64,000 nt of DNA, taken from the NCBI GenBank assembly GCA_965263255.1, contig CBDHHA010000008.1, positions 4,549,987 to 4,613,986 on the forward strand. The letters are read 5' to 3'. The translations under genes and the position numbers were made by a program. The notes below the pieces were generated by a model. The model worked only from the letters and a program-made list of their open reading frames with translations. It was not told where the DNA came from and made no database searches. This document shows positions 1-32,830 of the stretch, piece by piece. Position 1 is the stretch's first letter. The number at the start of each line of letters is the position of its first letter. The DNA comes from Bryobacterales bacterium (GTDB lineage: Bacteria; Acidobacteriota; Terriglobia; Bryobacterales; UBA6623).

Positions 1-1
1 C

Positions 2-343
2 TACCAGCGCGAGCGCTGGGACGCCCACGGGCACTATCGCGCGGTGGACGAGGAGCACCGGCCGATCGACGACAGCGACCGGGGCGTGGTCCCGGACTAC
101 CCGTTCAAGGGAGTGGGCCTGAGCGCGTTCGCCTCGCAAGTGGTGCGCAAGGAGCGGTTCGTTCGCGCTTTCGTCAACCAGCATCACGACATGCTGTTCC
201 ACCGCCCGCTGAGACTCTTCCGGGACCAGAGGGACGACTACAAGGCCCTCTATGACTTTGCCGTTGCCAACGACCTGCAAATCCGGCCGCTCCTCAAGAG
301 GATGGTGCTGATGAGGCTCGGCGACCGGCCTAACAGCCCATAG
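2..343 (+). CDS. C-terminal fragment of an unidentified protein (reading frame open to the window edge)
   Basis: The frame of ORF 44..343 stays open back to nt 2 (YQRERWDAHGHYRAVDEEH...). It lies on the same strand, 80 nt upstream of the DUF1501-like gene. I recognise no diagnostic motif. Confidence 0.4.
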   Translation, partial: YQRERWDAHGHYRAVDEEHRPIDDSDRGVVPDYPFKGVGLSAFASQVVRKERFVRAFVNQHHDMLFHRPLRLFRDQRDDYKALYDFAVANDLQIRPLLKRMVLMRLGDRPNSP

Positions 344-422: not shown

Positions 423-2087
423 ATGAATCGGCGGGGATTCCTTTCTGGGGCAGCCCGAGGCGCGGGGGCGCTTGCGGCTGCGGACTTTTTCGGCTACTGG
501 CTCGGCGGCGGCCTCGATTCGCTCAGCCCGGCCTTGGCCGGCGCGGTCAAGGAGCACGCGAAGGAGGCGTCGCAGCCCCGCTTCCTCATCTACTGGTTCA
601 TGGAAGGGGCCTGGATGAGCTATGACATGTTCGGGCCCGTGCTTCCCTCTCGGAACGACGCCAGCTTCTCGGACCTCCCGAGGGACCCGAGCGACTGGGG
701 CGTGATTTCGGAGCATATCTATCGCACCAAGGACCTTGCTCCCGAAGACTTCCGGAGACACGGCGAGATCTTCCATGGCCCGCTGGCCGAGGATGGCCGC
801 GAACTGTTCGGGGAAATGGCGATCCTCTCGAGCGCCCTCACCGGCAGCGGGCACACCAGGGACCGCTTCAAGGCGCATTATGGCCAGTACACCGTCGACA
901 TGAAGGCAAGGCGGGAGCCGGACGAGCGAACCGTGCTGCAGGCCTTCTGCGAACAGGCCGGACGCCAGTACCTGTTGCCCAACCTGAACTGGCACCGCTG
1001 GCTGTCCGACGGGGAGCTCGACATCGCAGCCTACCCCGAAGGCACAGGCATCTACCACGCGCTCGGCCCGCCATGGGCGCACATCATCTATCCGCAGACC
1101 CCGAAGTTCACCCGCGGGCTTGTCCAGCAGACGCTCGCGATGCGCAATGACGAGCGCAATCACTCCGTGCAGCGATTCCTGGACCAGTCCCGCAGGAGCC
1201 TGCTGGCCGATCGCAACAGCCCGGAGCTCCAGAGCTTCGCATCCGCGCTTGATGTCTACAAGCGGCTCGTAGAGGGCGGTGGCAAGAGCGTCGAGAGCCG
1301 CTCGATGTTCCTGGACCCGGGACTGAGGGAGGAATTCCGGGTCAGTCCTGCCGACGAGGAAATCCACTTCGAACTCATCAATCAGACCCTGCCGCGGAGC
1401 AAGTACACGCCCAACATCAATGTCCAGGCCATGATGATGTTCGAGATGATGACCAAGGGACTGAGCTGCGCGGGCTGGCTCGAGAACCGCTTGGTCCGCG
1501 GATTCGATCATCACTGGGCGCGCAAGAAGGTCCTGTCGGGCTATCCCTTCGACCAGCGGGAGATGATGCGGGCCGAGCTGTGGACCCCGCTCAAGACATT
1601 CGTGCGCAAGCTCAAGGAGACTGAGTACGCAAGCACGGGGAACTCCTTCTACGACTACACGACGATCGTGCTGAGCAGCGAATTCGGCAGAACCGTCGGC
1701 GGCAGCATCGACAGCATCCTGGCGAATACGGACCTCGACGAGGAGGAGAAGCGGGAGCAGGTTCTCTCGCAGGACATCAGCGCCCACAACCCGGTCAACT
1801 CCTGTGCGTTCCTCGGCCCGCGCGTCCGCGGCGGCACGCAGTTCGGATGGGTCGGCCAGAAGACCTTCCAGCCGATTCCCGTCCACCCGGTGACCGGGGA
1901 ACTGGATCCACGGTACGACCGCGACGGAAACCTCCGCGAGGGCTTCAACGAGCCGGCGCGGGGGTTCATCATGCCGAACCACGGGCACATTTATTCCACG
2001 GCCCTCCGGCTGGCCGGCGTGGATTCCAAGGGGGCCGGGAGGAACGAATCGCCGCACCTTCCGTTTGTCATGGCAGACGGCAGCTAG
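423..2087 (+). CDS. DUF1501-like protein (sulfatase/alkaline-phosphatase superfamily) with a Tat-type signal
   Basis: ATG preceded by GGGGAGA. The N-terminus MNRRGFLSGAARGAGALAAA has an RR-x-FL Tat motif. The SEFGRT motif (IVLSSEFGRTVGG) and the following ...GPRVRGGTQFG are typical of DUF1501. The usual GxDH motif is replaced by SAHNP, and 554 aa is longer than typical. Confidence 0.55.
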   Translation: MNRRGFLSGAARGAGALAAADFFGYWLGGGLDSLSPALAGAVKEHAKEASQPRFLIYWFMEGAWMSYDMFGPVLPSRNDASFSDLPRDPSDWGVISEHIYRTKDLAPEDFRRHGEIFHGPLAEDGRELFGEMAILSSALTGSGHTRDRFKAHYGQYTVDMKARREPDERTVLQAFCEQAGRQYLLPNLNWHRWLSDGELDIAAYPEGTGIYHALGPPWAHIIYPQTPKFTRGLVQQTLAMRNDERNHSVQRFLDQSRRSLLADRNSPELQSFASALDVYKRLVEGGGKSVESRSMFLDPGLREEFRVSPADEEIHFELINQTLPRSKYTPNINVQAMMMFEMMTKGLSCAGWLENRLVRGFDHHWARKKVLSGYPFDQREMMRAELWTPLKTFVRKLKETEYASTGNSFYDYTTIVLSSEFGRTVGGSIDSILANTDLDEEEKREQVLSQDISAHNPVNSCAFLGPRVRGGTQFGWVGQKTFQPIPVHPVTGELDPRYDRDGNLREGFNEPARGFIMPNHGHIYSTALRLAGVDSKGAGRNESPHLPFVMADGS

Positions 2088-2104
2088 GGCTAGGGCCCTC
2101 TTGC

Positions 2105-3307
2105 ATGGACTGCTGCTTGGCTTCCAACCGCCGGCCATCCGCAATTCCTCGTTGCCAGTGGCGCAGTCCGTCCGGACGGGCCCTCGGCCCGGCTGTCCGA
2201 GCCCCGAGCGCGCGTCCGACCCTTCGGGGCGCGTTGCTGGCCGGGCTCCTTGCCGCCTCCGGAGCAGCCGGGTACGGCCAGATCGCGCCACTTGCAGACC
2301 CCGTGCGATTCTGGCAGCACGAGTCCGAGTACAGCGGGTCACGAACCTGCAAGCCCTGCCACGCGGAGATCTACTCGCGCCAGGCTCTCAGCAACCACTC
2401 GAAATCCCTCCGACCGGTAGGGCAGGTCCCGGAACTGGCGGCCGCCGATCCCGTGCAGCGATTCGATCGGGTTTCCGGCTTCACCCTGAGTCTTTCCGGC
2501 GACAGCGCCGGCCGCATTCGGCTCGAAGCCTCCGATGGTGCCGATTCGAGTGGCGCGCTGCTGTCGTGGGCGTTCGGCAGCGGGACGAAGGGCATTACCC
2601 CGATCGGCCGCTCCGACGCGGGCGGCTGGGTGGAGAGCCGCCTCACCTGGTACGAGAGCCTCGGCGGGATCGACTTCACCACGGGGGCGTCGAAGTACGA
2701 TCCGCAGAACGCGGTCGAGAGTCTCGGGCGCGAGCTGACCGCCAAGCAGGTCGCCGAATGCTTCGGCTGCCACACCACCGGTTACGACGGGCGGGTCTCG
2801 GCCCCGACCGCTGACGAAATGGGGATTCGCTGCGAGCGGTGCCACGGCCCCGGCCGCAAGCATGTCGAGAGCGCGACACGCGGCGCCCCGGTAGCCGGGA
2901 CGATCTTCAATCCTGGCGGCCTGGGGGGCTTCGAGCAGGCCCGGATGTGCGGAGCCTGCCATGGTGTCCCGCCCGCGGACAACGACTTCGACGCATTGGC
3001 GTTGCTGGAACGGACCCCGCACAGCGTCCGGTTCCCGAGCCAGAGAATCGTCCTGAGTCGGTGCTTCAACGAGACGTTCGGTGATCTGGCCTGCACCGCC
3101 TGTCACGATCCGCATCGCGACGTTGCCGACGAGGCGGGCTCGTTCGACGAGTCCTGCCTGTCGTGCCATGACGGCCGGTCGCGCCTAGGCGGTTCTGTGT
3201 GCCTGGTAGGGTCCGCGGATTGCGCGAGCTGCCACATGCCAAGCAGGCGGGTGATGCGTCATTCTATGTTCAGCGACCACTGGATCCGTGTCGTGAGGCC
3301 GGAGTAG
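2105..3307 (+). CDS. Multihaem c-type cytochrome (7 CXXCH motifs), secreted
   Basis: Seven haem-binding motifs are present: CKPCH, CFGCH, CERCH, CGACH, CTACH, CLSCH and CASCH. A hydrophobic signal-like segment LRGALLAGLLAASGAAGYGQ is present. The start is uncertain (ATG 2105 or TTG 2117). The upstream part of ORF 1847..3307 overlaps the preceding gene. Confidence 0.8.
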   Translation: MDCCLASNRRPSAIPRCQWRSPSGRALGPAVRAPSARPTLRGALLAGLLAASGAAGYGQIAPLADPVRFWQHESEYSGSRTCKPCHAEIYSRQALSNHSKSLRPVGQVPELAAADPVQRFDRVSGFTLSLSGDSAGRIRLEASDGADSSGALLSWAFGSGTKGITPIGRSDAGGWVESRLTWYESLGGIDFTTGASKYDPQNAVESLGRELTAKQVAECFGCHTTGYDGRVSAPTADEMGIRCERCHGPGRKHVESATRGAPVAGTIFNPGGLGGFEQARMCGACHGVPPADNDFDALALLERTPHSVRFPSQRIVLSRCFNETFGDLACTACHDPHRDVADEAGSFDESCLSCHDGRSRLGGSVCLVGSADCASCHMPSRRVMRHSMFSDHWIRVVRPE

Positions 3308-3349
3308 GGCCGTTCCGTTCGCGCCTGGCTACCGGGCGGACACAAACCG

Positions 3350-5215
3350 ATGATTGCGAGAAGGCCAGCCAGAGCGTTGTGGTTCGCGGTGGGCGCCCTG
3401 CTGGTCGCGGTCGCCGGAGCCAGCGCGCAGGAGACTCCGCTCACGCCTGCCGATTACCGATTCATCGAGACGCGGTTTCGCGCGGCCCGGGATCTCGAGC
3501 GCAGCGGCGAGCTGTCCGAGGCGGCCGCCGAGTACCGAGCGATCCTCAGCAGGTTCCCGACGGCTGTGCCCCGGGTCTATCACAATCTCGGCCTGGTCTG
3601 CTTCCACCAGCGCGATTACCCGCAGGCGATCGAGGCCTTCGAGGCCGGGATCGAACTCGACGGATCGATGCCCGGAAGCCGGCTGTTCCTGGGCATGTCG
3701 TACTTGAATGTCGAGCGTCCGGGAGAGGCCCTCCCGCAGCTCGAGGCGGCGCACCGGCTGCAGCCCAGTTTCGAGAGCGGCCTTCACCTAGGACTCGCTT
3801 ACGCGGCCAATCTGCGCCACGCCGAAGCCATCCGGGCTTACAGCCAGGCGCTGCCGCTGGCCGGGGACGAGGCACCGAACGTGCTCTATTCCATCGGGCA
3901 GGCCTACCTCGACCTCGCCGAGAGGATGGTGAACGAGCAGGCCGCATCCCACCCCGAGTCGAAGGAGACCCATCTCGCGGCTGCCCGCCTCTTCGAGAGC
4001 CAGCAGGTGTACCAGCTGGCGGCGATCAAGTATCTCGAAGCCGCGGAACTGGACCCGTTCAACGCATCCATATTCTTCCCGCTGGCCCGGATGCTTGCAA
4101 TCCTCGGGCTGGACGTCCCCTCGGATCTCGCCTTGGAGCGCTACTGGGACCTGCTGCCGGCCGTGCCTCGAATGCGGATTGACCAGAGCATGCTGCCCAA
4201 GGAGCAGGTCGCCGAGATCGGGACGAAGGTGGAGTTCGAGGGGATCCTGCGATCGCTGCCCGATGTCGAGCCGGGGCGCTTGCCCGCCATGCCGATGGTG
4301 GGCGCGGAAGTCAACGAAGAGCTGGCCACCCGCCTGGCCGGCCCCGATTCCGCTGCATGGGGCCAGGTCGCGCAAGCCGTGTCGGAGGGCAGGTTCGAGG
4401 ACGCCCTGGCGGCCCTCGACCGGCTTGGGGAGAGAGGCGGCGGATGGCTAAGGGACTATCTGGTGACCACCTTGCACGTCTGGCTGGACGACTACAGGTC
4501 CGCAGCTCTGGCGGCTGACGCACCGTCGCTATCGGCGCAGCCCCTGCAGGCCGCCCAGACCCTCCGGGCGGAGGTTTTCCGGCAGGTATCCCTCGAGTAC
4601 TTCGACGAGCTGGTTCGCGAGCACCCGGACTCATGCCGGGCGCGGCTCGTCAGAGCGATGAACTTCGCCGCCCAGGAAATGGCGGAGGCCGAGGCCGAGT
4701 TCCTCGCCGCGATCGAGGCGTGCCCCCTCGACACCCAGATCCGCATCGAACTCGCTGACCACTACCTCTGGAACTCGCAGTACGAGGAGGCGCGGCAGGC
4801 CTGCCTGGACGAACTCAAGATCAACCCGCACTCGAGCGCGGCCAGGAAACGCCTTGGTCGGATCCACGTCCAGTTGCGCGATGGTGAGGAGGCCCTGCCG
4901 TTCCTGCTTGCCGCTACGGAGGCAGACCCGGAGGATGCCGATGTCCGGACCGACTTGGGGAGGGCCTACGAGCTCCTCCAGCGATGGGACAACGCGATCG
5001 CCGAGTACCTGCTAGCCCTGGAGCTGGACCCCGCTCTCAATCGCGTTCACTACGTGCTGGCTAGGCTGTACCGCCAGCTCGGCAGAGACGACCTGGCCCA
5101 GCAGCAGTTCCAGCTCTTCAAGCGGAACGAAGACGAATCGCGGCAAGCGCGCAATGCAAGGATCCAGCGCCTTCGCAAGAAAGAGGCGCTTGGACCCGCG
5201 ACGGCGGGGCGATAG
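3350..5215 (+). CDS. TPR repeat protein with signal peptide
   Basis: Signal peptide MIARRPARALWFAVGALLVAVAGASAQ. Repeated 34-aa TPR-like units occur throughout (e.g. YHNLGLVCFHQRDYPQAIEAFEAGIELD and RTDLGRAYELLQRWDNAIAEYLLALELDP). Confidence 0.8.
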   Translation: MIARRPARALWFAVGALLVAVAGASAQETPLTPADYRFIETRFRAARDLERSGELSEAAAEYRAILSRFPTAVPRVYHNLGLVCFHQRDYPQAIEAFEAGIELDGSMPGSRLFLGMSYLNVERPGEALPQLEAAHRLQPSFESGLHLGLAYAANLRHAEAIRAYSQALPLAGDEAPNVLYSIGQAYLDLAERMVNEQAASHPESKETHLAAARLFESQQVYQLAAIKYLEAAELDPFNASIFFPLARMLAILGLDVPSDLALERYWDLLPAVPRMRIDQSMLPKEQVAEIGTKVEFEGILRSLPDVEPGRLPAMPMVGAEVNEELATRLAGPDSAAWGQVAQAVSEGRFEDALAALDRLGERGGGWLRDYLVTTLHVWLDDYRSAALAADAPSLSAQPLQAAQTLRAEVFRQVSLEYFDELVREHPDSCRARLVRAMNFAAQEMAEAEAEFLAAIEACPLDTQIRIELADHYLWNSQYEEARQACLDELKINPHSSAARKRLGRIHVQLRDGEEALPFLLAATEADPEDADVRTDLGRAYELLQRWDNAIAEYLLALELDPALNRVHYVLARLYRQLGRDDLAQQQFQLFKRNEDESRQARNARIQRLRKKEALGPATAGR

Positions 5216-5222
5216 CGTCCTC

Positions 5223-6941
5223 GTGCCGCGCCTGGATGCTACGCGCGCTTGCTTCCGGGCGGCTGCGTGCCTGATCGTGCTGCCGCCCGCAGCGCCCGGC
5301 GCGCAGGCGGCGTTCGTGGATGTCGCCGCCGAGTCCGGGCTGACGGACATCTTCTACTGCGGCAGGGATGACAGCAAGGACTTCATCCTCGAGGCCATAG
5401 GATCCGGCGTGGCGCTGCTCGACTACGACCGTGACGGATTCCTGGATGCGTTCTTCGTCACGTCTAGCACCTTCGAGGGATTCCCGCCCGGCCGGGCCCC
5501 CAGCAACCACCTGTACCGCAACAACGGCGACGGCACGTTCGCGAACGCCACGGACCGTGCCGGCCTCCGGATGTCCGGGTGGGGACAGGGCGCATGCGTC
5601 GGCGACGTTGACAACGACGGCTTCGACGATCTGTTCGTCACCTACTTCGGAGAGAACCGCCTCTACCGGAACAGCGGCCGCGGGACGTTCGCCGACGTGA
5701 CGCTGCAATCGGGTCTCGGTCCGGAACGGCGCTGGTCGACCGGTTGCGCCTTCCTGGACTACGATCGCGACGGGCATCTCGATCTGTTCGTGGCGAACTA
5801 CCTAGTCTTCGACAGGGACCGCATTCCCGCAAGGGGCAGCGCCCCCTCCTGCCAGTGGCAGGGGCAGGCCGTGGCGTGCGGTCCCCGCGGGCTGCCTGGA
5901 GAGACGAACCAACTGTTCCGCAATCTCGGCGACGGCCTGTTTGCCGACGTTTCCGAGCAGTCGGGTGTCTCCAGCGTCCAAGGCCGATACTCGTTGTCCG
6001 TGACACCGCTGGACTACAACGCTGACGGCTGGCCGGATGTCTACGTGGCCGTCGATTCGCAGGCCAGCATACTGTTTGAGAACAAGGGCGACGGCACTTT
6101 CGAGGATGTCGGGGTATTCGCAGGTGCGGCCCTCGACGAGCACGGGGACGTGCAAGCCGGGATGGGAACGGCAGCTGTCGACATCGATGGCGACGGACGC
6201 CTCGACATCGTGAAGACCAACTTCATGGGGGAGACTTCGAACATCTACTTGAACTCCCCGGCAGCGTCCTTCGACGACCGGGTGCATGCGATGGGCGCGG
6301 GAATCAGCGCGGGCTACATGGGCTGGGGCGTGGCGGCCCTCGATTTCGACCACGACAGCTGGCCGGACATCCTTGTCGCGAACGGCCACACGTACCCGGA
6401 AATCGAGGGCCTCGTTCCGGGCAATCCGTACCGGCAGGGCCGGCTGCTGTACAGGAATGCCGGGGGGCGTCGACTCGAGCCCGTCGAGCCGCCGCAGGGA
6501 TCCGCGATACTGGCCAGGCACTCCGGCCGGGGCGTTGCCGCCGGGGATTACGACAATGACGGCGACGTGGACGTGTTCATAAGCAACATGAACGAGCGTC
6601 CGAGCCTTCTCCGTAACGACTCCAGCCTTGCAGGCGGCTTCCTCTCCATTCGGCTGATTGGTACCGCGTCGAATCGCAGCGCGATCGGAGCGCGCGTGAC
6701 AGTGAAGGCAGGATCCAGAGTCCAGGTCCAGGAGGTGCGGTCGGGATCGAGTTTCATGTCGAGCAACGACCTTAGGCTGCACTTCGGATTAGGGGGCAGT
6801 GCTGTAGTCCGGGAGGTTGTCGTAGACTGGCTGTCCTCCTCGCCCCGCGAAACACTCGAAAACCTCGCAGCGAACCAGTTCCTTGAGGTCACCGAGGGAG
6901 AGGGCATCACGGCCCGCTCGCCGGGAGGCACAGCACAGTGA
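5223..6941 (+). CDS. CRTAC1/ASPIC-UnbV family FG-GAP (VCBS) repeat protein, paralog 1
   Basis: Repeated LYRNxGDGTFxDV and DxDxDG motifs (DYDRDGFLD, DVDNDGFDD). The C-terminal UnbV/ASPIC signature is NRSAIGARVTVKAGSRVQVQEVRSGSSFMSSNDLRLHFGLG. I start it at GTG 5223, just after the TPR stop, which gives the Sec-like leader VPRLDATRACFRAAACLIVLPPAAPGAQA. A start at ATG 5154 would overlap the TPR gene by 62 nt. Confidence 0.8.
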   Translation: MPRLDATRACFRAAACLIVLPPAAPGAQAAFVDVAAESGLTDIFYCGRDDSKDFILEAIGSGVALLDYDRDGFLDAFFVTSSTFEGFPPGRAPSNHLYRNNGDGTFANATDRAGLRMSGWGQGACVGDVDNDGFDDLFVTYFGENRLYRNSGRGTFADVTLQSGLGPERRWSTGCAFLDYDRDGHLDLFVANYLVFDRDRIPARGSAPSCQWQGQAVACGPRGLPGETNQLFRNLGDGLFADVSEQSGVSSVQGRYSLSVTPLDYNADGWPDVYVAVDSQASILFENKGDGTFEDVGVFAGAALDEHGDVQAGMGTAAVDIDGDGRLDIVKTNFMGETSNIYLNSPAASFDDRVHAMGAGISAGYMGWGVAALDFDHDSWPDILVANGHTYPEIEGLVPGNPYRQGRLLYRNAGGRRLEPVEPPQGSAILARHSGRGVAAGDYDNDGDVDVFISNMNERPSLLRNDSSLAGGFLSIRLIGTASNRSAIGARVTVKAGSRVQVQEVRSGSSFMSSNDLRLHFGLGGSAVVREVVVDWLSSSPRETLENLAANQFLEVTEGEGITARSPGGTAQ

Positions 6942-8680
6942 CCGCGGCCTGGTCCCGCCGGCGGATCCTGCGCCTGGCCGCTGCCGCGGCCACTCCCGGA
7001 TGGGGTGCCCTGGGCAGCCGTGCCCTCCTCGGCGCCCCGCCGACAGGGCCCTATGGCGTGCAGTTCGTGGACGTGGCGAGGGATGCCGGCCTGACCGACA
7101 CGGTCTACTACGGAAGCAGCGAGCGGGTGAAGTACATCGTCGAGGCGAACGGTTGCGGCGTCGCCTTCTACGACTACGACAACGATGGCTGGCCCGACCT
7201 GTTCGTCCTCAACGGCACCCGTCTCGAGGGCTTTGAAGATGGTCTCGAGCCCTCGAACCGCTTGTACCGGAACAATCGCGACGGGACTTTCACAGACGTT
7301 ACCGAGGAAGCCGGGCTCGTCCGGTCCGGCTGGGCGAACAGCGTCTGCATCGGTGACTTCGACAACGACGGCAATGATGACCTGTTCGTCACCTACTGGG
7401 GGCAGAACGTTCTGTACCGCAATAACGGGGACGGGACGTTCACGGACGTGACCGCGGACGCTGGACTCGGCGGCTTCCCGGATCGCTGGAACGCGGGGGC
7501 GACGTTCATCGATTACGACCGCGACGGGTATCTGGACCTCTTCGTCTCGAACTATGTGGACGTCGACCTCGAGAGGATCCCGCTGCCCGGCCAGGGCAAC
7601 AACTGCGAGTGGAAGGGCGTCCCCGTCTTCTGCGGGCCCCGCGGAATGCCGGGAACGAAGAACTACCTTTACCGGAACAACGGAGACGGCACGTTCTCGG
7701 ACGTGAGCGAGGAGGCGGGGATCCACAGCCCGCACGGCTACTACGGCATGACCGCTCTCGTGACGGATGTCGACGAGGACGGATGGCCCGACATCTACGT
7801 GGCGTGCGACTCGACTCCCAGCATTCTCTATCGAAACAACCGGGACGGGACATTCACCGACATCGCGGTCGAGTGCGGCGTCGCTTACAGCGAGGACGGG
7901 CGCGAGCAGGCCGGGATGGGGCTTGCAACCGGGGACTACGACCGGGACGGAAGGCTGGACATCGTCAAGACGCTCTTCGCCGACGAGATGCCGGCCCTGT
8001 ACCGGAACTTCGGCAATGGCAGGTTCGCGGACATGTCTGTCGCGGCGGGCCTGCACGTCGTGACGCAGCACATCCAATGGGGCACCGGTCTCGTGGACTT
8101 CGACAACGACGGCTGGCAGGACCTGTTCTATGCGGTCGGGAACCTGTTTCCCCGCGTCGAGCAGTTCAATCCGCGCTACCCGTACCGCGGCCCGCGATTC
8201 CTGTTCCGAAACATGCGGGACGGTTCGTTCTCGAACGTCACCGATACCTGCGGCCCGGGGCTGACGACGCCCCATTCGAGCCGCGGATGCGCCTTCGGTG
8301 ACTTCGACAACGACGGAGACCTGGACATCCTGGTCATGAACATGAACCAGCCGCCGTCGCTGATTCGCGCCGATGTTTCCACAGGCCATCACTGGCTCAA
8401 GGTCAAGCTCGTCGGCGTCGAGTCGAATCGCACGGCGATCGGCGCGCGCGTGGATCTGCGGTCGGGCGGCAGATGGCAGTCTCAGGAGGTGCAGAGCCAG
8501 TCCAGCTACTACTCCGTCAACGACCTTCGGCTCCACTTCGGCCTGGGTGCCGAGTCGAAGGCAGACGAGATCAGAATCCGCTGGCCCAACGGAAGGCGCG
8601 AGCAGCTCGCCACCGTCGCGGCTGACCGGGTCGTGTACATCGAGGAGGGCAGGGGAATCGTGCGATCGGAGGAATTCTGA
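6938..8680 (+). CDS. CRTAC1/ASPIC-UnbV family FG-GAP repeat protein, paralog 2
   Basis: The GTG start overlaps the upstream stop (GTGA). Twin-arginine leader MTAAWSRRRILRLAAAAA. It has six LYRNNxDGTFTDV-type repeats. The C-terminus is NRTAIGARVDLRSGGRWQSQEVQSQSSYYSVNDLRLHFGLG. Confidence 0.85.
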   Translation: MTAAWSRRRILRLAAAAATPGWGALGSRALLGAPPTGPYGVQFVDVARDAGLTDTVYYGSSERVKYIVEANGCGVAFYDYDNDGWPDLFVLNGTRLEGFEDGLEPSNRLYRNNRDGTFTDVTEEAGLVRSGWANSVCIGDFDNDGNDDLFVTYWGQNVLYRNNGDGTFTDVTADAGLGGFPDRWNAGATFIDYDRDGYLDLFVSNYVDVDLERIPLPGQGNNCEWKGVPVFCGPRGMPGTKNYLYRNNGDGTFSDVSEEAGIHSPHGYYGMTALVTDVDEDGWPDIYVACDSTPSILYRNNRDGTFTDIAVECGVAYSEDGREQAGMGLATGDYDRDGRLDIVKTLFADEMPALYRNFGNGRFADMSVAAGLHVVTQHIQWGTGLVDFDNDGWQDLFYAVGNLFPRVEQFNPRYPYRGPRFLFRNMRDGSFSNVTDTCGPGLTTPHSSRGCAFGDFDNDGDLDILVMNMNQPPSLIRADVSTGHHWLKVKLVGVESNRTAIGARVDLRSGGRWQSQEVQSQSSYYSVNDLRLHFGLGAESKADEIRIRWPNGRREQLATVAADRVVYIEEGRGIVRSEEF

Positions 8681-8755: not shown

Positions 8756-11401
8756 TCAGGGCTCTCCGGTCAGCATGGCGGCGATTCTGCGGAACCCGTT
8801 CGCCTGCGCCAGCGAGAGCGCCGTAGCGCCTTCCGCATTGCGCGCGTCCGCGTCCGCGCCGCGCTCGAGCAGTTCCTGCACGACCAGCGACTGCCCGCGG
8901 GAAACGGCAACCAGCAGGGCGGTGAAGCCTCGCGAGTCCGAGACGTCGAGGCTCGCTCCGCCATCGGCGAGGATGCGGACTCCCGAGAGAGTTCCCGAGG
9001 CCGCGGCCAGCATGAGTGGCGTGACGCCGTCGGGTCGCGCGCGATTCGGGTCGGCGCCCCCCGCGAGCAGCACTTCGATCGACTCCGCGTGGCCATTCGC
9101 GGCCGCGAACATCAGCGCCGAGGTTCCCTCCGCGTCAACCAGGTCGGGGTCCGCGCCGCCCGCCAGCAGCGTCGCGGCAGTCGTGGAGAATCCCTCGGAG
9201 CCGGCCATCATTAGCGCGGTTCGCCCGTCGGGCGTCCTGGCGTTCGGCGCGGCACCGCTGTCTAGCAGGACTTCCACGGTTTCCCTGTGATTCTTCCCGG
9301 CCGCCAGCATCAGGGCCGTCCCTCCGTCCGGTGCCGTGGCATCGGTAGCCGCCCCGTTCGCGAGTAGCTCGGCCACGGCCGCGGCGTGACCCCGGTCGGC
9401 CGCCAGCATCAGGGCCGTGGTCCCGCCGGGATCGCGGCTGTTCACGCGGGCCCCGGCGTCCACTAGGGTCTTGATCCTGTCCGCGCGTCCAGTCGCCGCG
9501 ACGATCCGGAGCAGCTCGTCCAGATCCTCGTCCGCTCCCGCGCGCTCAAGGTCGAGGGCGGCTTCGTCGAACCCCGCCAGAGCCGCATGGACCAGCGCCG
9601 TCCGCCCCCGGTCATCGGAGTCGTCCGGCCGCGCGCCGTTGTCGAGCAGGAACCGGATCGCCTCGGCCTGTCCGGCACCCGCTGCCAGCATCAGGGCCGT
9701 CCTCCCGCCCGACATCCGGGCGCCGACATCCGCGCCCGCCTGCACCAGCGTTTCGAGAGCCACCGTGTCTCCCCTGGCGGCCGCCAGCATCAAGGCCGTG
9801 CGTCCGCCGTCCCCTGCCGGGTCCACGCTGGCTCCCGCTGCAATCAGCGTGCGCAGCATCGAATGGTCGCCCTGGGAAACCGCGATCATCACTGCTGTCG
9901 TCCCGTCGCCAGCCTGGGCGTCAACATCCGCCCCGGCCTCGATCAGGATCCCTGCCATCGTAGGCAGCCCCTTTGAGACGGCAAGCACCAGCGGCGTCCT
10001 GCCGCCCTCGCCCCTCGCGTTCGGGTCGGCGCCTGCCTGTAGCAGCGTTCGAACAATGGAGGTCTGCCCCTCCCAGGCGGCCATCAGCAGCGGCGTCCAG
10101 CCTACCTGGCTCGCCAAGGCAGCGTCGGCCCCTGCCCGCAAGAGCGCCTCGACGATCGCCCGGTGGCCTTCTGCCGATGCCAGCATCAGCGCGGTGACGC
10201 CGCCTCCGTGGATTGTCCCGCTCTGGACGGCGACGGGAACACCTTCCCTGCTCTGCCGGTTGACTTCGGCCCCCTCTGCGATCAGGAGACGAACTGTGCC
10301 CAAGTGCCCGCGCAGCGAAGCGATCATCAGGGCGGTCAGGCCCCTGCTGTCGCTGATGCCGGGATCCGCTCCCCGGCCGAGGGCGGTCGCCGCTTCTTCG
10401 GTCCTGCCGACCCTCGCTGCGAACAGGAGGTCCTCGGACGGTGTCGATGAAGCCCCTCGAGCCCGGAGTTCCTCGACCGTCTCGACGCGGCCGAGCAGCG
10501 CGGCCTGGACAAGAGCCGATTCCCCGAGGGCGTCGACCGCGTCGATCTCGGCTCCGTGCGCCAGCAGGGTGCGGACAATGTCCGTGTGGCCGTTCGACGC
10601 CGCGAACATGAGCGCCGTCCGACCGTCGATCGATGCGTGGCGGACACCCGCTCCCGCACTCAGGAGCGAGGCCACGGTGCGCCCTGCTCCCTTCGACGCC
10701 GCGAGCATGAGGGCCGTCACCCCTCCCAACGGGACGTCGAAGTCGCCGGCGGAGATATTGGCCCCCTCGGCACCGCGGGCATCCGCGTGGGCTCCCGCTT
10801 CCAGGAGCGCGTCGACGACCGGGAGATGGCCTCTGAAGGTTGCGGCCATCAGCGGGGTCTGGCCCGAGTCGTCCGCTTGGTTCGGATCCGCTCCGGCGCG
10901 CAGCAGTGCCTGCACGACCGAATCCTGCCCGCCGGCTGCTGCGAGCAGGAGAGCGGTCTCGCCGCCGTCGCCGCGGACATCGACGCTCGCGGAATCCAGC
11001 AGGGTTGGGACTGCTCCGGTGCGGTTTCCGGCAATGGCGACCATCAGCGCCGTCTGCCCGCTGTCGTTCTGCGCGTCGGCTCGGGCACCCGCATCGAGCA
11101 GCCTTCGGAGGGTCCTCTCATGGCCTGCCGATGCGGCGGCCATCAGGGCCGAGGTGCCTCGATCGTCGACTGCGTGAACGTCCGCGCCCTCGGCGAGCAA
11201 GGCCTCTACTGCTTCGAGACCGCCGCCCAGCGCGGCCAGCATCAGGGGAGTCGTGCCGCGGTCGTTCCGGGCGTCAACGTCCGCTCCCTGCTCGATCAGC
11301 GTGCGGACCCGGAGGCTGTCACCCGCCTGCGAGGCTCCCAGCAGTGCCGTGTCGACGGCCGTCCGTTGCGCGTGCGCCGGTGCAACGTGCCCTAGCGCCA
11401 C
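8756..11401 (-). CDS. Giant ankyrin-repeat protein (881 aa from GTG 11401, made almost entirely of ~33-aa ANK units)
   Basis: The consensus G(x)TALMxAAxxGHxxxVxxLLxxGADxxAxD repeats from the N- to the C-terminus, roughly two dozen units. The true start may be CTG 11422 (see findings). Confidence 0.85.
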   Translation of the reverse strand: MALGHVAPAHAQRTAVDTALLGASQAGDSLRVRTLIEQGADVDARNDRGTTPLMLAALGGGLEAVEALLAEGADVHAVDDRGTSALMAAASAGHERTLRRLLDAGARADAQNDSGQTALMVAIAGNRTGAVPTLLDSASVDVRGDGGETALLLAAAGGQDSVVQALLRAGADPNQADDSGQTPLMAATFRGHLPVVDALLEAGAHADARGAEGANISAGDFDVPLGGVTALMLAASKGAGRTVASLLSAGAGVRHASIDGRTALMFAASNGHTDIVRTLLAHGAEIDAVDALGESALVQAALLGRVETVEELRARGASSTPSEDLLFAARVGRTEEAATALGRGADPGISDSRGLTALMIASLRGHLGTVRLLIAEGAEVNRQSREGVPVAVQSGTIHGGGVTALMLASAEGHRAIVEALLRAGADAALASQVGWTPLLMAAWEGQTSIVRTLLQAGADPNARGEGGRTPLVLAVSKGLPTMAGILIEAGADVDAQAGDGTTAVMIAVSQGDHSMLRTLIAAGASVDPAGDGGRTALMLAAARGDTVALETLVQAGADVGARMSGGRTALMLAAGAGQAEAIRFLLDNGARPDDSDDRGRTALVHAALAGFDEAALDLERAGADEDLDELLRIVAATGRADRIKTLVDAGARVNSRDPGGTTALMLAADRGHAAAVAELLANGAATDATAPDGGTALMLAAGKNHRETVEVLLDSGAAPNARTPDGRTALMMAGSEGFSTTAATLLAGGADPDLVDAEGTSALMFAAANGHAESIEVLLAGGADPNRARPDGVTPLMLAAASGTLSGVRILADGGASLDVSDSRGFTALLVAVSRGQSLVVQELLERGADADARNAEGATALSLAQANGFRRIAAMLTGEP

Positions 11402-11531
11402 GAAGGCGGCCAGCAGACGCAGGCCGCTCCTTGCAAGCTCGATACGCGTAAGCCCCTCCGATACGATAGGCCAAGATTCTCGCTCGGGACGCCTTCTGAT
11501 CGCAAGGCCCGGTCCCGTCGGGCCGTCTGCA

Positions 11532-13292
11532 GTGACAAGGCGCCGCGTCCTCCAACTATTGAACGGGAGCGTTCTCGCGCTTCCGGAATCGCGGGCCCAG
11601 CGCGAAGCGCAGCTACAGCCCTTGCGGGGCCGGTCCGCCGGGTCGAGTTCCGGGGCCTATCCGGCCAGGTTCGTGGACGTCGCGTCCCATGCGGGCCTTA
11701 CGCAAACGGTCTACTACGGCGAGGAGGACACTTCCGACTTCATTTCCGAGGCGAACGGCTGCGGCGTGGCGTTCTATGACTATGACCACGACGGCTGGCT
11801 TGACGTCCTGCTGCTGAACGGTTCACGCCGGAGCGGCATACCTGCCGGCGAGACTGCCACGAATCGGCTCTACCGGAACAACCGCGACGGGACATTCACG
11901 GACGTGACTCGCGAGGCGGGCCTCGTGCGGACCGGCTGGGCGAATGGCGTCTGCATAGGGGACTTCGACAACGACGGCTTCGATGACCTCTTCATCACGT
12001 ATCGCGGCAGTAACGTCCTGTATCGCAACAACGGGGACGGAACATTCACCGATGTGACGGCCGAATCCGGGGTCGGCGGGGACCCGCGATGGTGGAGCAC
12101 TGGCTGCACGTTCGTCGACTTCGACCGGGACGGATACCTAGATCTGTTCGTCGCCAACTACGTGGGCACGGGCAGCCTCGGGAGCCTGCCGCCTAAGGGA
12201 CGTACGACATGGAAGGGCGTGCCGGTGGCATACGGGCCCCAAGGTCTGGAACAAGGGTCGCACGTCCTGTACCGGAACAACCGCGACGGGACATTCACGG
12301 ATGTCACCGACGAGTCCCGGGTGGGTGACGCGCCGGGCTACGGGCTGACCGCGATGTCCACTGACTACAACGAGGACGGATGGCAGGACATCTACATCGC
12401 GTGCGACTCGAGCCCCAGCATCCTGCTGAGGAACAACCGGGACGGCACGTTCACCGACATAGCGACCGAGCGGGGCCTGGCCTACAGCCCTGACGGCGTG
12501 GCCCAAGCGGGCATGGGGCTGGCGATTGCCGACTACACGTCCGACGGCAAGCTGGACATCGTCAAGACGCACTTCGCGGACGACGTTCCAGGCCTGTATC
12601 GGAACGACGGACGCGGGTACTTCTCCGACGAGTCGCCCCGTGTCGGGCTCCGTGCCAGCTCCCGGCATCTGGAGTGGGGCGCCGGGCTCGTCGACTTCGA
12701 CAACGACGGCAGGCCCGACCTGTTCTACGTCTCCGGCAGCGTCTATCCCGAAGTCGAGGCCGTCAATCCCGACTATCCCTACCGGGGCCCTAGGTTCCTC
12801 TTCCGTAATGTGGGCAACGGCGCCTTCGTGAACGTGTCCGAACAGTGCGGGCCTGGTCTCACGGTTCCGCACTCGAGTCGCGGCTGCGCCTTCGGGGACT
12901 TCGACAACGACGGGGACATGGACGTCCTCGTGATGAACATGAACGAGCCCCCCTCGCTGCTCCGGGTGGATTCGCGCTCAGGCAATCACTGGCTGAAGGT
13001 GAAGCTGAAGGGCGTGCGGTCGAACCGCACGGCGATCGGCGCGCGGGTCTACGTCCGGTCGGGCGGCCAGGTCCAGGCCCAGCAGGTTCACAGCCAGGAC
13101 AGCTACCTCTCCGTAAGCGACCTGCGGCTCCACTTCGGCCTCGGGTCAGCTCGCCGGGCGGACTCGGTCCGCGTCGAATGGCCAAGTGGATCCACGGAGA
13201 TTCTCGCGAACGTCGGTGCCGACCAGTTGGTCCATGTCGAGGAAGGCAGGGGAATCGTCCGCAGCGAGCGGTTCAGGGGCAACGGCGCGTGA
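11532..13292 (+). CDS. CRTAC1/ASPIC-UnbV family FG-GAP repeat protein, paralog 3
   Basis: GTG 11532 gives the leader VTRRRVLQLLNGSVLALP, which has an RR motif. The repeat architecture matches paralog 2 (LYRNNRDGTFTDVTREAGL, DFDNDGFDD ...). The C-terminus is NRTAIGARVYVRSGGQVQAQQVHSQDSYLSVSDLRLHFGLG. The upstream part of ORF 11253..13292 is antisense to the ankyrin gene and is not credible. Confidence 0.85.
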   Translation: MTRRRVLQLLNGSVLALPESRAQREAQLQPLRGRSAGSSSGAYPARFVDVASHAGLTQTVYYGEEDTSDFISEANGCGVAFYDYDHDGWLDVLLLNGSRRSGIPAGETATNRLYRNNRDGTFTDVTREAGLVRTGWANGVCIGDFDNDGFDDLFITYRGSNVLYRNNGDGTFTDVTAESGVGGDPRWWSTGCTFVDFDRDGYLDLFVANYVGTGSLGSLPPKGRTTWKGVPVAYGPQGLEQGSHVLYRNNRDGTFTDVTDESRVGDAPGYGLTAMSTDYNEDGWQDIYIACDSSPSILLRNNRDGTFTDIATERGLAYSPDGVAQAGMGLAIADYTSDGKLDIVKTHFADDVPGLYRNDGRGYFSDESPRVGLRASSRHLEWGAGLVDFDNDGRPDLFYVSGSVYPEVEAVNPDYPYRGPRFLFRNVGNGAFVNVSEQCGPGLTVPHSSRGCAFGDFDNDGDMDVLVMNMNEPPSLLRVDSRSGNHWLKVKLKGVRSNRTAIGARVYVRSGGQVQAQQVHSQDSYLSVSDLRLHFGLGSARRADSVRVEWPSGSTEILANVGADQLVHVEEGRGIVRSERFRGNGA

Positions 13293-13435: not shown

Positions 13436-16400
13436 CTACCACTCCACGCGCATGCGGAGCTGAATCGTCCTAGGCCCCTTGGGCTGTTCCGGCACGATCC
13501 TCCCGAACGACGAGCTGTTGATGTTGTTGCCGAAGCGGCCGGCGATCCATCGATGCCGATTCAGGCAGTTGAAGCAATCGGCGCCGATCTGGAGCCGCAC
13601 CTTCTCGGTGGCCAGGGGAATCCGCTTGACGACCGACAGGTCCTCGTTGAAGTTCGGGCACTGCCGGGTCTCCTGATCGACCTCCGGCGCGTTCCCCTCC
13701 ACGAAATCGCCGGGAGGCAGCCATGCCTGCGGGCGGTTGGGGGCGACTTGGGACGGGTTGCCGGCGTTCAGGATGAAGTTCCGGGTGGGATCCCCGAACA
13801 CCATGTCGCCGCAGGCGATGGAACTCCGCCAGGGCACGTCGGGAGCGCGGTCGGCCAGATTGCGGACTCCGCCCGGGATGCCGACGGACAGTCCCCCGCC
13901 CGTCGAGATCGGAAAGCCGTTGACGTATTCCTGCACGCCCGATACGGTCCATCCGCTCAGGACGTACTTGCTGAAATTGCTGGTTCCTCCCCATCTCTCG
14001 CCCGGCCCGAAGGGGAGGTCGTAGGAGTAGTTGAAGACAGCGCGATGAGTCGTGTCATAGCGATTCACCCGCTTGTCCAGCTTGCGGTTGTAGGAGTTCC
14101 GGGTGTTGCTGCCGAATGCGCCGGGAGCCCAGTCAACGTCTCCCAGTTGCTTGGCAACAGTCCAGTGCCCGAGGAACGAGAGGCCGTTTGAGTAGCGTTT
14201 CGTCGCCTTCAGCATGAACGCGTTGTAATTCATTCCGGTGTTGATGCCGGCGTCGTTCGAGATGTTGTTGAACTGCGGGAAGCGCCGCAGGGCGCGGTGG
14301 AGCGGCAGGTTGTCGGGGAACTCCGGATAAGGCTTTCCGAAGCCGGCGGCCGCTACCGCCGGGTCGCTGACCTCGAGATTGAGCAGCGGGCCGAGGTGCC
14401 AGTAGTCCGGGTGCAGGTCGTTGATGCGCTCGTGGTCATGGTTGTTCCGGCCCATGTTCGAGTAGAACGAGGTCTCGAGTACCCAGTCGCCGAACTGGCG
14501 CTGGAAGCCCGCGGTGATCATGTAGAGCACCGGAGGCGTGCCGATGGTGTGCGGGCTCATCCAGTTCGTGATGGACTGGTTGTTCAGGAAGGCCGGGTCG
14601 ATGAAGGGTGGCGTTCCCAGCTGCGAGGCCGGGAAGCCGTTGTCCCACTCGAAGTACGTGGCGAACGGAGTCGTCCGCGGCGGGGGGTTGCCTCGGGCCT
14701 CGTGGCCGGCCCGGTTGACAAACCGGACGTTCGTGTTCTGGATGGCCATGTACTGGACGCCCGCACCGGCCCGGAACACCAGCTTGTCGGCGATCTGGTA
14801 GGCCAGGCCCAGGCGCGGCCCGAAGTTGCCCCAGGTGGCGGGGCCTACCCGGAACTTGCCGTTCGCGCCCTGAGAACTGCCGTAGAATTCGAGCGCACCG
14901 CGGTAGTTCCCGCTGATGCCCGGGTTCGCGAGAGTCTCGTCGAACCCGGAGAACTGGCCGCTGTTCTCCTTGAAGGGCATTTGCACGTCCCAGCGGAGGC
15001 CGAGGTTCAGGGTCAGCTTGGGAAGGACCTTCCAGTCGTCCTGGATGTACAGGGCGTGGTAGGCCTCCCGCTCCTCCAGCGCGAGTCCCGCTGCCGTTCC
15101 GACGAAATTGGGCAGGCCGAGGAAGAAGTCGGCTAGATGGAAGCCGCCCGCGCCGTTCGTGTCCTTCGTCTCGCTGCCGAGATTGCCCTCCGAGACTCCG
15201 AATAGGTAGGTTCCCGCCGCTCCCACGCTGAGGCCCCCGGCGGCGCCGCCCTGGTCATGCCGGTTGATGCGCCAGTACTGCCCTTGGTAGCCGAACTTGA
15301 TGGTGTGCCGGCCCTTGTTCCAGAGGGTGCTGTACGCCCAGTTCGGAATCAGCTTGTTCTCGATGTTCTGGGGCGGATTGGCGCAGATCGAGACGCCGAA
15401 GCTCGAGGCCCGGGCCAGCTGGATCCAGGGACACTCGTTGCTGGGCATGCCCGAGAGGCCGATCTGGTTGGCGATCCCCTGGCCGAAGTTGTTCTGCTCC
15501 CTTCCGTTCTGCTGGTAGTTGAATCCGAACAGGACCTGGTGAACGACCCTGGGACTCTGCACCCACGAGTAGTCCGCGCGCATCCGCTGGAAGGAGTTGA
15601 ACGTCGTTCGTCCGAAGCTGTCGTCCAAGATCCCTCCCGGGTCCGTCTCGATCCGCGGCGCAGTCCCGTACATGTAGAAGGCGGAGATGCGATGGTTCGC
15701 GTTGAACTGGTGGTCGATCTTCGTCGTCAGGTCCCAGGGCTTGAACGTGCTCGAGACCGAGCCGAGATGATTCAGCTCGGGAGTGTCGCGCGCATTGGGT
15801 AGAGGCAGCAGCTGCATCACGTTCGCAGACACGCGGCTCAGCCGGCTCATCGGGATCTGGTTGTTGACGAACGGGCGGAATCGAATCTGATTGTCGGCGT
15901 CCCGGTACTGGTCCTTCCTGTCGAAGAGCTGGTTGAGATCAGGGTGCGAGAAGTCGCCGCTGCGCATGGCCGCAGTCGGCAGGGTCAGGAAGTTCGTGGC
16001 GCTGCCGGTGGCGCTCTGGCGGTAATAGGCCAGGGTCGACCAGAAGAAGGTCTTGTTGCGCCCGTTGTAGGCTCCCGGAATGATGACCGGGCCGCCGGCC
16101 GCGACGCCGTACTCGTTGTTGCGGCTGTTCGCCCGCTCGGCGGCCTGCCACGGCCGGGCGTTCAGGAACGAGTTGTTGTGGAAATTCCATACGGATCCGT
16201 GGAATTCGTTGGTACCGGACTTGGTCGCGTAGGTGATCAACCCGCCGCTGGTGCGCCCGTACTCCGCGGACGTGTTGCTCAGCAGCAGCTTGTACTCTCC
16301 GATCGCTTCCACGCTGGGCTCCGTGCCCGCTGCCTGCTCGCCGACTCCGTTGTTGGTGGTCTCGGTCGAGAGGCCGTCCAGCATGATCACGGTATTGAGT

Positions 16401-16939: not shown

Positions 16940-17154
16940 GTGGTCCTCCTCTACCTTGAGATGCCACGACTCGGCGAGGCCGTGACCGTGGTACCACATC
17001 CGGCGTGCTGAAATGACCGCAGCATGGCTGGACTTGGGGCGAATCACCGGATTTCCCTGCATTGCCCGGCCTGAAACAGGAGCAAGGGGACATTCGGGAC
17101 CGCGAGTGCGGGCATCAGCCCGGCCGGGATCGGCGATAGTGGAACTGCCTGTCC

Positions 17155-19702: not shown

Positions 19703-19734
19703 CGGTCCCTCGATACCAGACCCAGCTTACGATA

Positions 19735-19759
19735 GCCGGCCCGGTTCAACGGGCCCGGC
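19735..19759 (-). terminator. Hairpin 9 nt downstream of the DUF1080 gene stop
   Basis: GCCGGCCCG-GTTCAA-CGGGCCCGGC forms 6 bp, a bulge, then 3 bp. On the minus strand it is followed by UAUCGUAAGCU, a weak U-tract. Confidence 0.35.
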
Positions 19760-19767
19760 CGGTGGCC

Positions 19768-20409: not shown

Positions 20410-20517
20410 GGCTAGCCCGCATGGTACCAGCGCGGATCGGCGAAGTCGAGCGGCCGGGAAACGCTGCAACGAGGCGGGAATTGCACCGTGTTCCGGCGGC
20501 CGGGAGAATAGGGGAGG

Positions 20518-20895
20518 ATGCCCCGCACACTCTATGAGGTTCTCGGCGAGAGCGGCTTCGAGCGCCTGACGCAGGCGTTCTACGCCCGGGTCCCGGACGA
20601 CGACATCCTCGGTCCGATGTACCCGGCCGGGCAGACCGAGGCAGCTCGGGTCCGGCTTCGCGATTTCCTCGTGGGGAGGTTCGGGGGACCACAGCGCTAC
20701 ATCGAGCAGCGCGGCCACCCCCGGCTGCGGATGCGACACATGCCGTTCCCGATCGACGAACGCGCTCGCGACCGCTGGATGGAACTGATGTCCCAGGCGC
20801 TCGACGAGGCCGGGTTCGAGCCGGAAGTGTCCGCGTTCCTGCTCCGCTACTTCGCCGACACCGCGACGTTCATGATCAACCGCGCCCCGGACTAG
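20518..20895 (+). CDS. glbO: Group II truncated haemoglobin
   Basis: 125 aa. The motifs LYEVLGESGFERLTQAFYARV, GPMYP, RFGGPQRYIEQRGHPRLRMRHMPFPID and RDRWMELM form the trHbO signature. Confidence 0.85.
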   Translation: MPRTLYEVLGESGFERLTQAFYARVPDDDILGPMYPAGQTEAARVRLRDFLVGRFGGPQRYIEQRGHPRLRMRHMPFPIDERARDRWMELMSQALDEAGFEPEVSAFLLRYFADTATFMINRAPD

Positions 20896-32764: not shown

Positions 32765-32830
32765 TTGTAGGGGCGCACGCTCGGGAGATTGTCCGGCCGG
32801 AACTCGGCTGCCTTCGCCTTGGCCAAGGCT

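Follow-up and report, generated by a model that had tools for sequence, protein, structure and literature searches.

The closest described relatives of the proteins considered here are multihaem cytochromes of the NrfA type and the products of one published kind of gene cluster. Cytochrome c554, the octahaem sulfite reductase MccA and the nonahaem cell-surface reductase OcwA of Thermincola potens have been grouped by Soares et al. as one clade (clade 3; PMC9250108), in which haem 2 is five-coordinate (PMC6703420, PMC9250108); this haem is the open-coordination active site in OcwA, MccA and c554, and OcwA and MccA alone have in common an extra β-sheet domain (PMC6703420). For the bacterial 'CRTAC1 family protein', a single relevant publication was found in the literature; it describes clusters from Planctomycetota, Syntrophobacter and the acidobacterium Paludibaculum in which a CRTAC1 family gene is bordered by hydrazine-synthase-like genes (PMC12758564). 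Here we describe a gene cluster at positions 423-8680 of a 64,000-nucleotide stretch (hereafter, the window) of contig CBDHHA010000008.1 from a soil Bryobacterales bacterium (Acidobacteriota; assembly GCA_965263255.1), in which the gene for a seven-haem cytochrome c (cyt7) is followed by one for a tetratricopeptide-repeat (TPR) protein and by two for CRTAC1-like propellers. This set of genes falls among the extracytoplasmic modules based on multihaem cytochromes, and the cytochrome-TPR-CRTAC1 combination is new as a system; a full-text literature search for the three together found no publication. To our knowledge, no biochemical activity has been established for either bacterial or vertebrate CRTAC1 proteins. 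We propose, with a probability of roughly 0.4, an extracytoplasmic redox complex in which the TPR protein serves as a tether for both cytochrome and propellers.

The five open reading frames (ORFs) of the cluster lie on the plus strand and encode a DUF1501-like protein (gene 1; 423-2087, 554 aa), cyt7 (gene 2; 2105-3307, 400 aa), the TPR protein (gene 3; 3350-5215, 621 aa), propeller A (gene 4; 5223-6941, 572 aa), and propeller B (gene 5; 6938-8680, 580 aa). An earlier inspection of the letters alone (the sequence-only reading) had described five co-directional genes with gaps of 17, 42, 7, and -4 nt, all with apparently exported products and with no pathway that could be named. The same intervals follow from the ORF coordinates, its domain calls (DUF1501-like, multihaem, TPR, and FG-GAP/UnbV_ASPIC) are borne out by Pfam and by homologues, and our literature search likewise found no pathway to match. 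Leaders could be read from the sequence in all five products: twin-arginine in gene 1 (RRGFL; MNRRGFLSGAARGAGALAAA), Sec-like in cyt7 (a hydrophobic stretch ending AAGYGQ after a 35-aa N-terminal extension), Sec-like in the TPR protein (...VAGASA|QE), Sec-type in propeller A (...APGAQA|AF), and twin-arginine-like in propeller B (SRRRILRL). Gene calls on an identical public contig of 272 kb (L001) give the same ORFs except for the start of gene 4, which is ambiguous; with the other possible ATG, at 5154, the product would have 595 aa and its gene would overlap the TPR gene by 62 nt, and near-identical proteins on near-identical contigs are variously called at 554, 572, 583 or 595 aa. A scan for sigma-70-like promoters and for terminators, uninformative for Acidobacteriota, found none between the five genes. 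The genome is GC-rich (about 66%), and its nearest counterpart in the species collection is a Bryobacterales metagenome-assembled genome (MAG) with a cytochrome of 70% identity. From the homologous loci described below, the region is a mosaic of two cassettes of exported proteins, the first containing gene 1 and the second consisting of genes 2 to 5, so that the conserved unit has four genes, not five. This gene anatomy, with two cassettes, a cytochrome-TPR unit and a TPR-propeller unit, is solid.

The cytochrome carries seven CXXCH motifs (at C82, C219, C243, C282, C330, C351, and C373) and gives multihaem Pfam matches. The motifs are invariant in alignments of 15 and of 131 family members, and exactly seven are present in 83 of 89 cytochrome domains taken from 81 loci; they are not chance cysteines, which the sequence-only reading had considered unlikely. 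An exhaustive profile search gave 8365 cluster representatives (clusters at 50% identity) at E<=1e-3, 3719 at E<=1e-10, and 670 at E<=1e-30, spanning Acidobacteriota, Planctomycetota, Bacteroidota, Marinimicrobia and others. Among solved structures, the 131-sequence profile matched OcwA (PDB 6I5B; 3e-20) and OmhA (6QVM; 9e-20) best, followed by chain A of 6R2Q (2e-17), which we take to be MtrA, as the depositors' label looks wrong, then by MccA (4RKM; 9e-15) and cytochrome c554 (1FT5; 6e-12), and more weakly by octahaem nitrite reductases (ONR) and NrfA. The first-haem motif YxGxxxCxxCH...SxH and the haem 2/3 pair CxGCHxTG...GxxCExCHGPGxxH are common to cyt7, OcwA and OmhA, and the haem 2-3 segment of cyt7 (CFGCHTTG...GIRCERCHGPG) aligns with its OcwA counterpart. 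MccA, which belongs with c554 to the same NrfA-type clade as cyt7, aligns with it in the haem-1 segment and in the C-terminal haem-motif segment. These profile matches assign cyt7 to the c554/MccA/OcwA/OmhA branch of NrfA-type multihaem cytochromes.

The structure of cyt7 was predicted with AlphaFold2, for which the 15-sequence alignment gave a pLDDT of 54 and the 131-sequence alignment a pLDDT of 92.2 with a pTM of 0.88; the latter model was used. It contains a β-sheet domain between haem motifs 1 and 2 (about residues 100-215; model residues 63-172), with confidently predicted strands, which by its position may correspond to the extra β-sheet domain of OcwA and MccA. In a Foldseek search of the PDB, the model matched OcwA (E 4e-6, TM-score 0.47) and MccA (E about 1e-2, TM-score 0.39), and none else. 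Unlike NrfA, HAO, MccA and OcwA, the model lacks the C-terminal three-helix bundle and ends in short helices and a β hairpin, and cyt7 has seven haems rather than the nine or eleven of OcwA and OmhA. Because the number of haems differs, the helix bundle is absent and the TM-score is below 0.5, we regard cyt7 as a new subfamily. The CX15CH haem of MccA is also absent from cyt7, as are the Fe-S and membrane subunits of the mcc operon from the present cluster. In comparison with OcwA, which has neither TPR nor propeller partners, cyt7 has both and comes from a Gram-negative host.

By homology with OcwA, MccA and c554, haem 2 of cyt7 may likewise have an open coordination site. Outside the haem motifs, H253, H337, H392, M378, and C320 are conserved, position 98 is His or Met, and H386 is less conserved. 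Counted over the family, these residues amount to six or seven possible distal ligands, to be set against seven haems, which would be compatible with one open or unusually ligated haem, yet is no evidence for one. C320, a solitary cysteine within an S-R-C motif, is conserved in 87 of 89 relatives, and position 98 is His in 52 and Met in 31 of the same 89; both are possible unusual haem ligands (His/Cys, His/Met) or parts of an MccA-like metal site. A separate peculiarity concerns the N-terminus. The called start of cyt7 (window 2105-2220) opens with the cysteine- and arginine-rich extension of 35 aa mentioned above (MDCCLASNRRPS...), placed before the signal peptide and common to the 70% relative (MNHCVASHGRS...). 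Because this extension is not found in L083, where the ORF opens with an ordinary signal peptide, the true start of cyt7 is uncertain.

Propellers A and B match the Pfam families FG-GAP_3 (1.8e-48 and 2.8e-56, respectively) and UnbV_ASPIC (1.9e-20 and 9.3e-21), each with seven DxDxDGxxD calcium-loop motifs, and propeller B matches the structure of human CRTAC1 (9ETN) over residues 254-566 with a profile E of 1.2e-36. Judged by these matches, both are members of the CRTAC1/ASPIC/UnbV family and homologous to human CRTAC1. Vertebrate CRTAC1 has a C-terminal EGF-like calcium-binding domain. The bacterial proteins have in common with it the FG-GAP propeller, the DxDxDG calcium loops and UnbV_ASPIC, whereas the EGF-like domain is missing; propellers A and B end right after UnbV_ASPIC, with no Pfam match to the EGF families. 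They also differ from the vertebrate protein in occurring as many paralogues, in the Tat-like leaders of some, and in their pairing with TPR genes. The hydrazine-synthase-like clusters, which include a member of the same acidobacterial order (Paludibaculum), are the one bacterial example that we found in the literature of a CRTAC1-type gene lying between genes for haem c proteins (PMC12758564). The haem proteins of those clusters are a propeller-haem α subunit and a fused β-γ subunit, not heptahaem and OcwA-like, and no TPR partner is reported (PMC12758564). Hydrazine synthase (HZS) chains are absent from the PDB sequence and fold matches of cyt7, and the other genes of the present cluster encode TPR or FG-GAP proteins, not homologues of HZS α or β-γ.

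The TPR protein contains two blocks of repeats, at about residues 40-250 and 400-610, that match Pfam TPR families. In a cytochrome-seeded sample of 80 genomic loci, TPR is linked to cyt7 in 48, in 34 of them as part of the cytochrome ORF and in the other 14 at no more than 600 nt from it. Among distant relatives of the cytochrome, cyt7 followed by a C-terminal TPR region forms single proteins of 600-770 aa (Bacteroidota, Marinimicrobia, Rhodopirellula, Stieleria, Latescibacterota, and Acidobacteriota), which are unambiguous genes in low-GC loci, and TPR is fused to the N-terminus of cyt7 in other representatives. The propeller side shows the same tendency, with planctomycete genes adjoining the cytochrome that encode proteins of ~1000 aa in which an N-terminal TPR region is fused to an FG-GAP propeller and UnbV_ASPIC. 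In a propeller-seeded sample of 80 metagenome loci (propeller at 47-61% identity), a TPR gene is present in 60, mostly adjoining the propeller gene. TPR is thus the hub of the cytochrome/propeller unit, and because cytochrome and TPR are one polypeptide in many relatives, the two are likely to act as one unit. A profile comparison with fused TPR domains did not separate a cytochrome-binding from a propeller-binding half of the window protein, both halves matching generically; TPR proteins from propeller-only loci resemble it little (<=123 bits).

The TPR protein might alternatively be a dedicated cytochrome-maturation chaperone of the NrfG/CcmI type rather than a scaffold. Some fused TPR domains indeed exceed the cut-off of TPR_CcmH_CycH (68-83 bits, in L054 and L061), and the window protein matches TPR_CcmH_CycH and NrfG weakly, but it stays far under both cut-offs (18.9 bits against 42, and 19 bits against 306 for NrfG NF007692). 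All seven haem sites are of the standard CXXCH type, with no need for a special lyase, and a permanent fusion in either orientation would be unusual for a maturation factor. The partnership of TPR genes with propellers in 57 cytochrome-free loci of the 60 with a TPR gene contradicts a chaperone role, and we consider this explanation extremely improbable.

The linkage of the cytochrome to CRTAC1 genes was then evaluated by position. A CRTAC1 gene lies within 2.5 kb of the cytochrome in 17 of the 80 cytochrome loci, which are 17 of the 22 with a CRTAC1 gene inside 10 kb; as 2.5 kb is a quarter of the flank space, this clustering near the cytochrome departs from a uniform spread with a binomial P of 4e-7. 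Of 13 sequence clusters of the cytochrome, nine show the linkage, and the cluster to which cyt7 belongs shows it in each of its seven members (L001, that is, the window, L002, L005, two in L006, and two in L007). The order cytochrome-TPR-CRTAC1-CRTAC1-ankyrin is kept with tight spacing in L002 and L083 (70-80% identity), including in L083 the 4-nt overlap of the two propeller genes. In L005 (52% identity), it is rearranged into TonB-dependent receptor (TBDR)-CRTAC1-cytochrome-TPR-CRTAC1. L137, found independently from the propeller side and one of three propeller-seeded loci that carry the cytochrome, has TBDR-cyt7-TPR-CRTAC1-TPR on one strand. The cytochrome-TPR-CRTAC1 triad therefore recurs across phyla, and the conservation of gene neighbourhood that the sequence-only reading had suggested examining is present for these three genes. 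L006 (a marine Terriglobia MAG, GC 39%) and L007 each carry two or three modules of cytochrome, TPR and propeller within 18-21 kb, located on both strands, with a GHL10-like protein and a PhyH dioxygenase encoded among them; both loci show local amplification of the module.

Based on this linkage and on the fusions, we infer that the TPR protein would serve as a periplasmic, or more generally extracytoplasmic, adaptor holding the cytochrome and the propellers together. Whatever the propellers bind would thereby be connected to a seven-haem electron wire, whose second haem may be open to a ligand, and the substrate would probably be something that passes the neighbouring Oar-type TonB-dependent barrels. 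The preference of the sequence-only reading for electron transfer over adhesion is a reasonable inference. Several points weigh against the proposed complex. The cytochrome is present in only three of the 80 propeller-seeded loci; therefore, the majority of TPR-CRTAC1 modules function in its absence. Many fusions of cytochrome and TPR have only housekeeping genes around them, from which it follows that the cytochrome needs no propeller. Neither a quinol dehydrogenase nor any other connection to a respiratory chain is encoded in the operon, and the argument for an open haem site draws on homology and residue counting, with a cyt7 model that carries no haems. We know of no cofactor or catalytic residue in CRTAC1-like proteins, and none was identified in this analysis. 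Finally, four CRTAC1 paralogues are found in the 64-kb window, and such paralogue richness raises the chance of fortuitous adjacency.

Part of this evidence would also fit two independent functions in a shared neighbourhood, in which TPR and CRTAC1 proteins, with or without an Oar-type barrel, perform non-redox capture or uptake of a substrate following a logic like that of polysaccharide-utilisation loci, and cytochrome-TPR is a separate periplasmic electron carrier. Adjacency would then result from the TPR partners and from a paralogue-rich genome, and no electrons would pass between cytochrome and propellers. The composition of the propeller-seeded loci (TPR in 60, TBDR in 26, and cyt7 in three of 80), the fusions with no propeller nearby, the glycoside hydrolases GH20 and GH3 and the GHL10-like protein that flank some close relatives, and the presence of two TBDR genes beside the four CRTAC1 genes of the window all speak for such a separation. 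It is less easily reconciled with the concentration of CRTAC1 genes at <=2.5 kb from the cytochrome (P = 4e-7), which is seen in the nine of 13 clusters and throughout the cluster of the window, with the position of the single TPR gene between cytochrome and propellers at gaps of 42 nt and 7 nt, and with an order that is kept at 70-80% identity and rearranged at 52%. On balance, we find two independent functions somewhat unlikely. As for a substrate, clustering of the ORFs over the 80 cytochrome loci gave no further constant neighbour consistent enough to name one: DUF1559, sulfatase, DUF1501, and WD40 proteins were recovered, all of them abundant in Planctomycetota anyway, together with sporadic glycoside hydrolases and a PhyH dioxygenase. 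The neighbours of close cyt7 relatives (GH20, GH3, the GHL10-like protein, and the PhyH dioxygenase) are similarly inconsistent.

Upstream of cyt7, gene 1 belongs to the first cassette together with a PSCyt-like gene, of which only the 3' end is inside the window (1-343, plus strand). The 5' part was supplied by the identical contig L001, to which window 2-340 was matched by phmmer, and the complete product is an exported protein of 1056 aa with an N-terminal CRACH and a C-terminal CYSCH motif. It matches Golvesin_C barely over the Pfam cut-off, DUF1549 and DUF1588 faintly, and the PSCyt3 and PSCyt2 families faintly and below cut-off. Gene 1 itself reaches 14.9 bits against DUF1501 (PF07394; E 0.015), below the Pfam cut-off of 27, and has no NCBIfam match. 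As direct assignment with Pfam and NCBIfam failed, it was assigned through its full-length homologues (42-67% identity over 99% of the length), which carry PF07394 and are named 'DUF1501 domain-containing protein' by NCBI; on this basis it is probably a divergent DUF1501-family protein. In having a haem-motif protein of ~1000 aa and, after it, a DUF1501-family protein exported by Tat, the first cassette resembles the familiar planctomycete-type PSCyt/PSD + DUF1501 pairs; it differs from them in that both proteins are too divergent for the Pfam cut-offs of these families and that the large protein has a Golvesin_C-like segment without clear PSD domains. We know of no function for the canonical pairs, and a full-text literature search for DUF1501 together with DUF1553 found no publication. 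Further upstream, outside the window, L001 encodes an exported protein of 552 aa (1983-3641 of that contig) that has one CARCH motif and matches no Pfam family; in L002 its gene is duplicated in tandem, immediately 5' of the PSCyt-like gene.

The sequence-only reading had taken all five genes of the cluster, including the DUF1501-like one, as a single pathway, and the stop-to-start gap of 17 nt between gene 1 and cyt7 is in line with this, as is the order in L002 and L083, where the PSCyt-like and DUF1501-like genes precede the cytochrome, TPR, propeller, and ankyrin genes. The DUF1501-like gene is, however, absent from 79 of the 80 cytochrome loci, the exception being the closest relative. 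The PSCyt-like and DUF1501-like genes are paired in L002, L083, and L084, and in the last of these (65% identity) they overlap by 4 nt with nothing cytochrome-, TPR- or CRTAC1-like after them. In Hyalangium minutum (L082, 44% identity), the DUF1501-like gene is preceded by the gene for a CBM60 protein, again in the absence of cytochrome, TPR and CRTAC1 genes. In L083 (80% identity), the gap between the DUF1501-like and cytochrome genes widens to about 200 nt; the cytochrome ORF starts there at least about 195 nt beyond the DUF1501-like gene, and L005 has a TBDR gene and a propeller gene upstream of the cytochrome instead. Because the pair behaves as its own unit elsewhere, the 17-nt gap represents a local juxtaposition rather than a conserved coupling, and a pathway of all five genes is very unlikely. 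Of the original proposal, the part that stands is the joint recurrence of the cytochrome, the TPR protein and the two propellers, whereas the DUF1501-like gene belongs to a separate two-gene cassette.

The window also encodes two Oar-type barrels. The one nearer to the cluster (13436-17062, minus strand) is an outer-membrane barrel resembling TBDRs of the Oar subclass, with an N-terminal CarboxypepD_reg domain (PF13620, 5.5e-17), OMP_b-brl_4 (4e-155) and a weak match to the TonB_dep_Rec barrel. The Oar subclass is defined by the CarboxypepD_reg N-terminal extension, and its founding member is needed for the secretion of a protein (PMC6434023). Genes of this type recur beside TPR, CRTAC1 and cyt7 genes; TBDRs with CarboxypepD_reg lie beside TPR-cyt7 in L010, L011, L014, L015, and L032, and beside all of these genes in L005 and L137. 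The second barrel (34148-37555, minus strand) shows a barrel-TPR-client arrangement, being followed by genes for a TPR protein of 421 aa (32831-34096, minus strand) and a canonical PSCyt1/DUF1549/DUF1553 protein of 1040 aa (29642-32764, minus strand). No DUF1501 gene follows this arrangement (29642-37555); the next gene encodes an AAA_14/DUF4143 protein.

These barrels raise the possibility of secretion and surface display, in which the cytochrome and the propellers would cross the outer membrane by way of Oar-type barrels, just as PopC of Myxococcus is exported by Oar, with the TPR protein as a periplasmic targeting adaptor, the cytochrome as an OcwA-like terminal reductase, and the propellers as adhesins or as modules binding minerals or polymers. 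Such an account gains from the adjacency of Oar-subclass barrels to TPR-cyt7, to TPR-CRTAC1 and, in L005 and L137, to all three, from the requirement of an Oar-subclass transporter for protein secretion (PMC6434023), from the fact that the best matches, OcwA and OmhA, are cell-surface terminal reductases (PMC6703420), and from the succession of TBDR, TPR, and variable client at 29642-37555. The TBDR linkage is nevertheless confined to a minority of loci (11 of 80 on the cytochrome side and 26 of 80 on the propeller side), and the nearest TBDR gene of the window is on the opposite strand, 4.7 kb downstream. TonB-dependent transporters import by default, and the window barrels gave no match to the Plug domain (PF07715) at E up to 0.01. 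A permanently fused TPR region would also suit a working domain better than a transient targeting factor, and we judge surface display unlikely. The joint proposal, that in Acidobacteriota and Planctomycetota CRTAC1-like propellers are the substrate-binding partners of TPR-docked multihaem cytochromes and are moved to the surface by Oar-type barrels for extracellular electron transfer or for the oxidative or reductive processing of polymers or minerals, is speculative and in our estimation quite improbable.

Between the cluster and the first barrel are an ankyrin gene and a third propeller. The ankyrin-repeat protein (8756-11401, possibly to about 11450, minus strand), convergent with the cassette, has at least 881 aa, with 13-15 repeat matches to Pfam Ank families. 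An in-frame signal-like sequence lies 5' of the called start (...LRLLAAFVALGHVAPAHA|QRT), by which the protein probably starts further upstream with a Sec leader and may be an exported ankyrin scaffold. The gene is syntenic in L002, and in L083 its place is taken by a gene for 866 aa, matched by position alone and with no Pfam match on record. The third CRTAC1-like propeller (11253-13292, plus strand) has a twin-arginine-like TRRRVLQL, its true start being probably later, and the fourth (38956-40692, minus strand) has a twin-arginine-like TRRSWLSL. A Tat leader as a general trait of the propellers, which would have hinted at a cofactor, was rejected, as 24 of 25 other propellers have no Tat-like motif; such leaders are limited to the paralogues in the window and in the closest relative, which would make them a trait of this lineage. 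Two or more propellers are found in 24 of the 80 propeller-seeded loci. Beyond the first barrel, window 18464-20739 (minus strand) contains two genes, one of them SelA/aminotransferase-like and the other encoding a 3-keto-disaccharide hydrolase (DUF1080) domain. These genes, an FGGY kinase upstream in L001 and the glycoside hydrolases of related loci jointly hint at a carbohydrate context.

The cyt7 family is large and has no described member; it stands on a branch with MccA, a sulfite reductase, and with two surface reductases, OcwA and OmhA. The frequent fusion of its members to TPR points to electron-transfer proteins that dock to their clients via a repeat scaffold. The arrangement of an Oar-type barrel, a TPR protein and a variable exported client may be what organises the very large sets of outer-membrane genes in Acidobacteriota. 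Soil bacteria have CRTAC1-type propellers in abundance, and conservation of these proteins extends to humans; their reproducible link to a redox protein is a testable functional lead. If a TPR-docked complex at the cell surface is borne out, it would provide the first biochemical role for CRTAC1-type proteins and a new outer-membrane electron route in abundant soil phyla.

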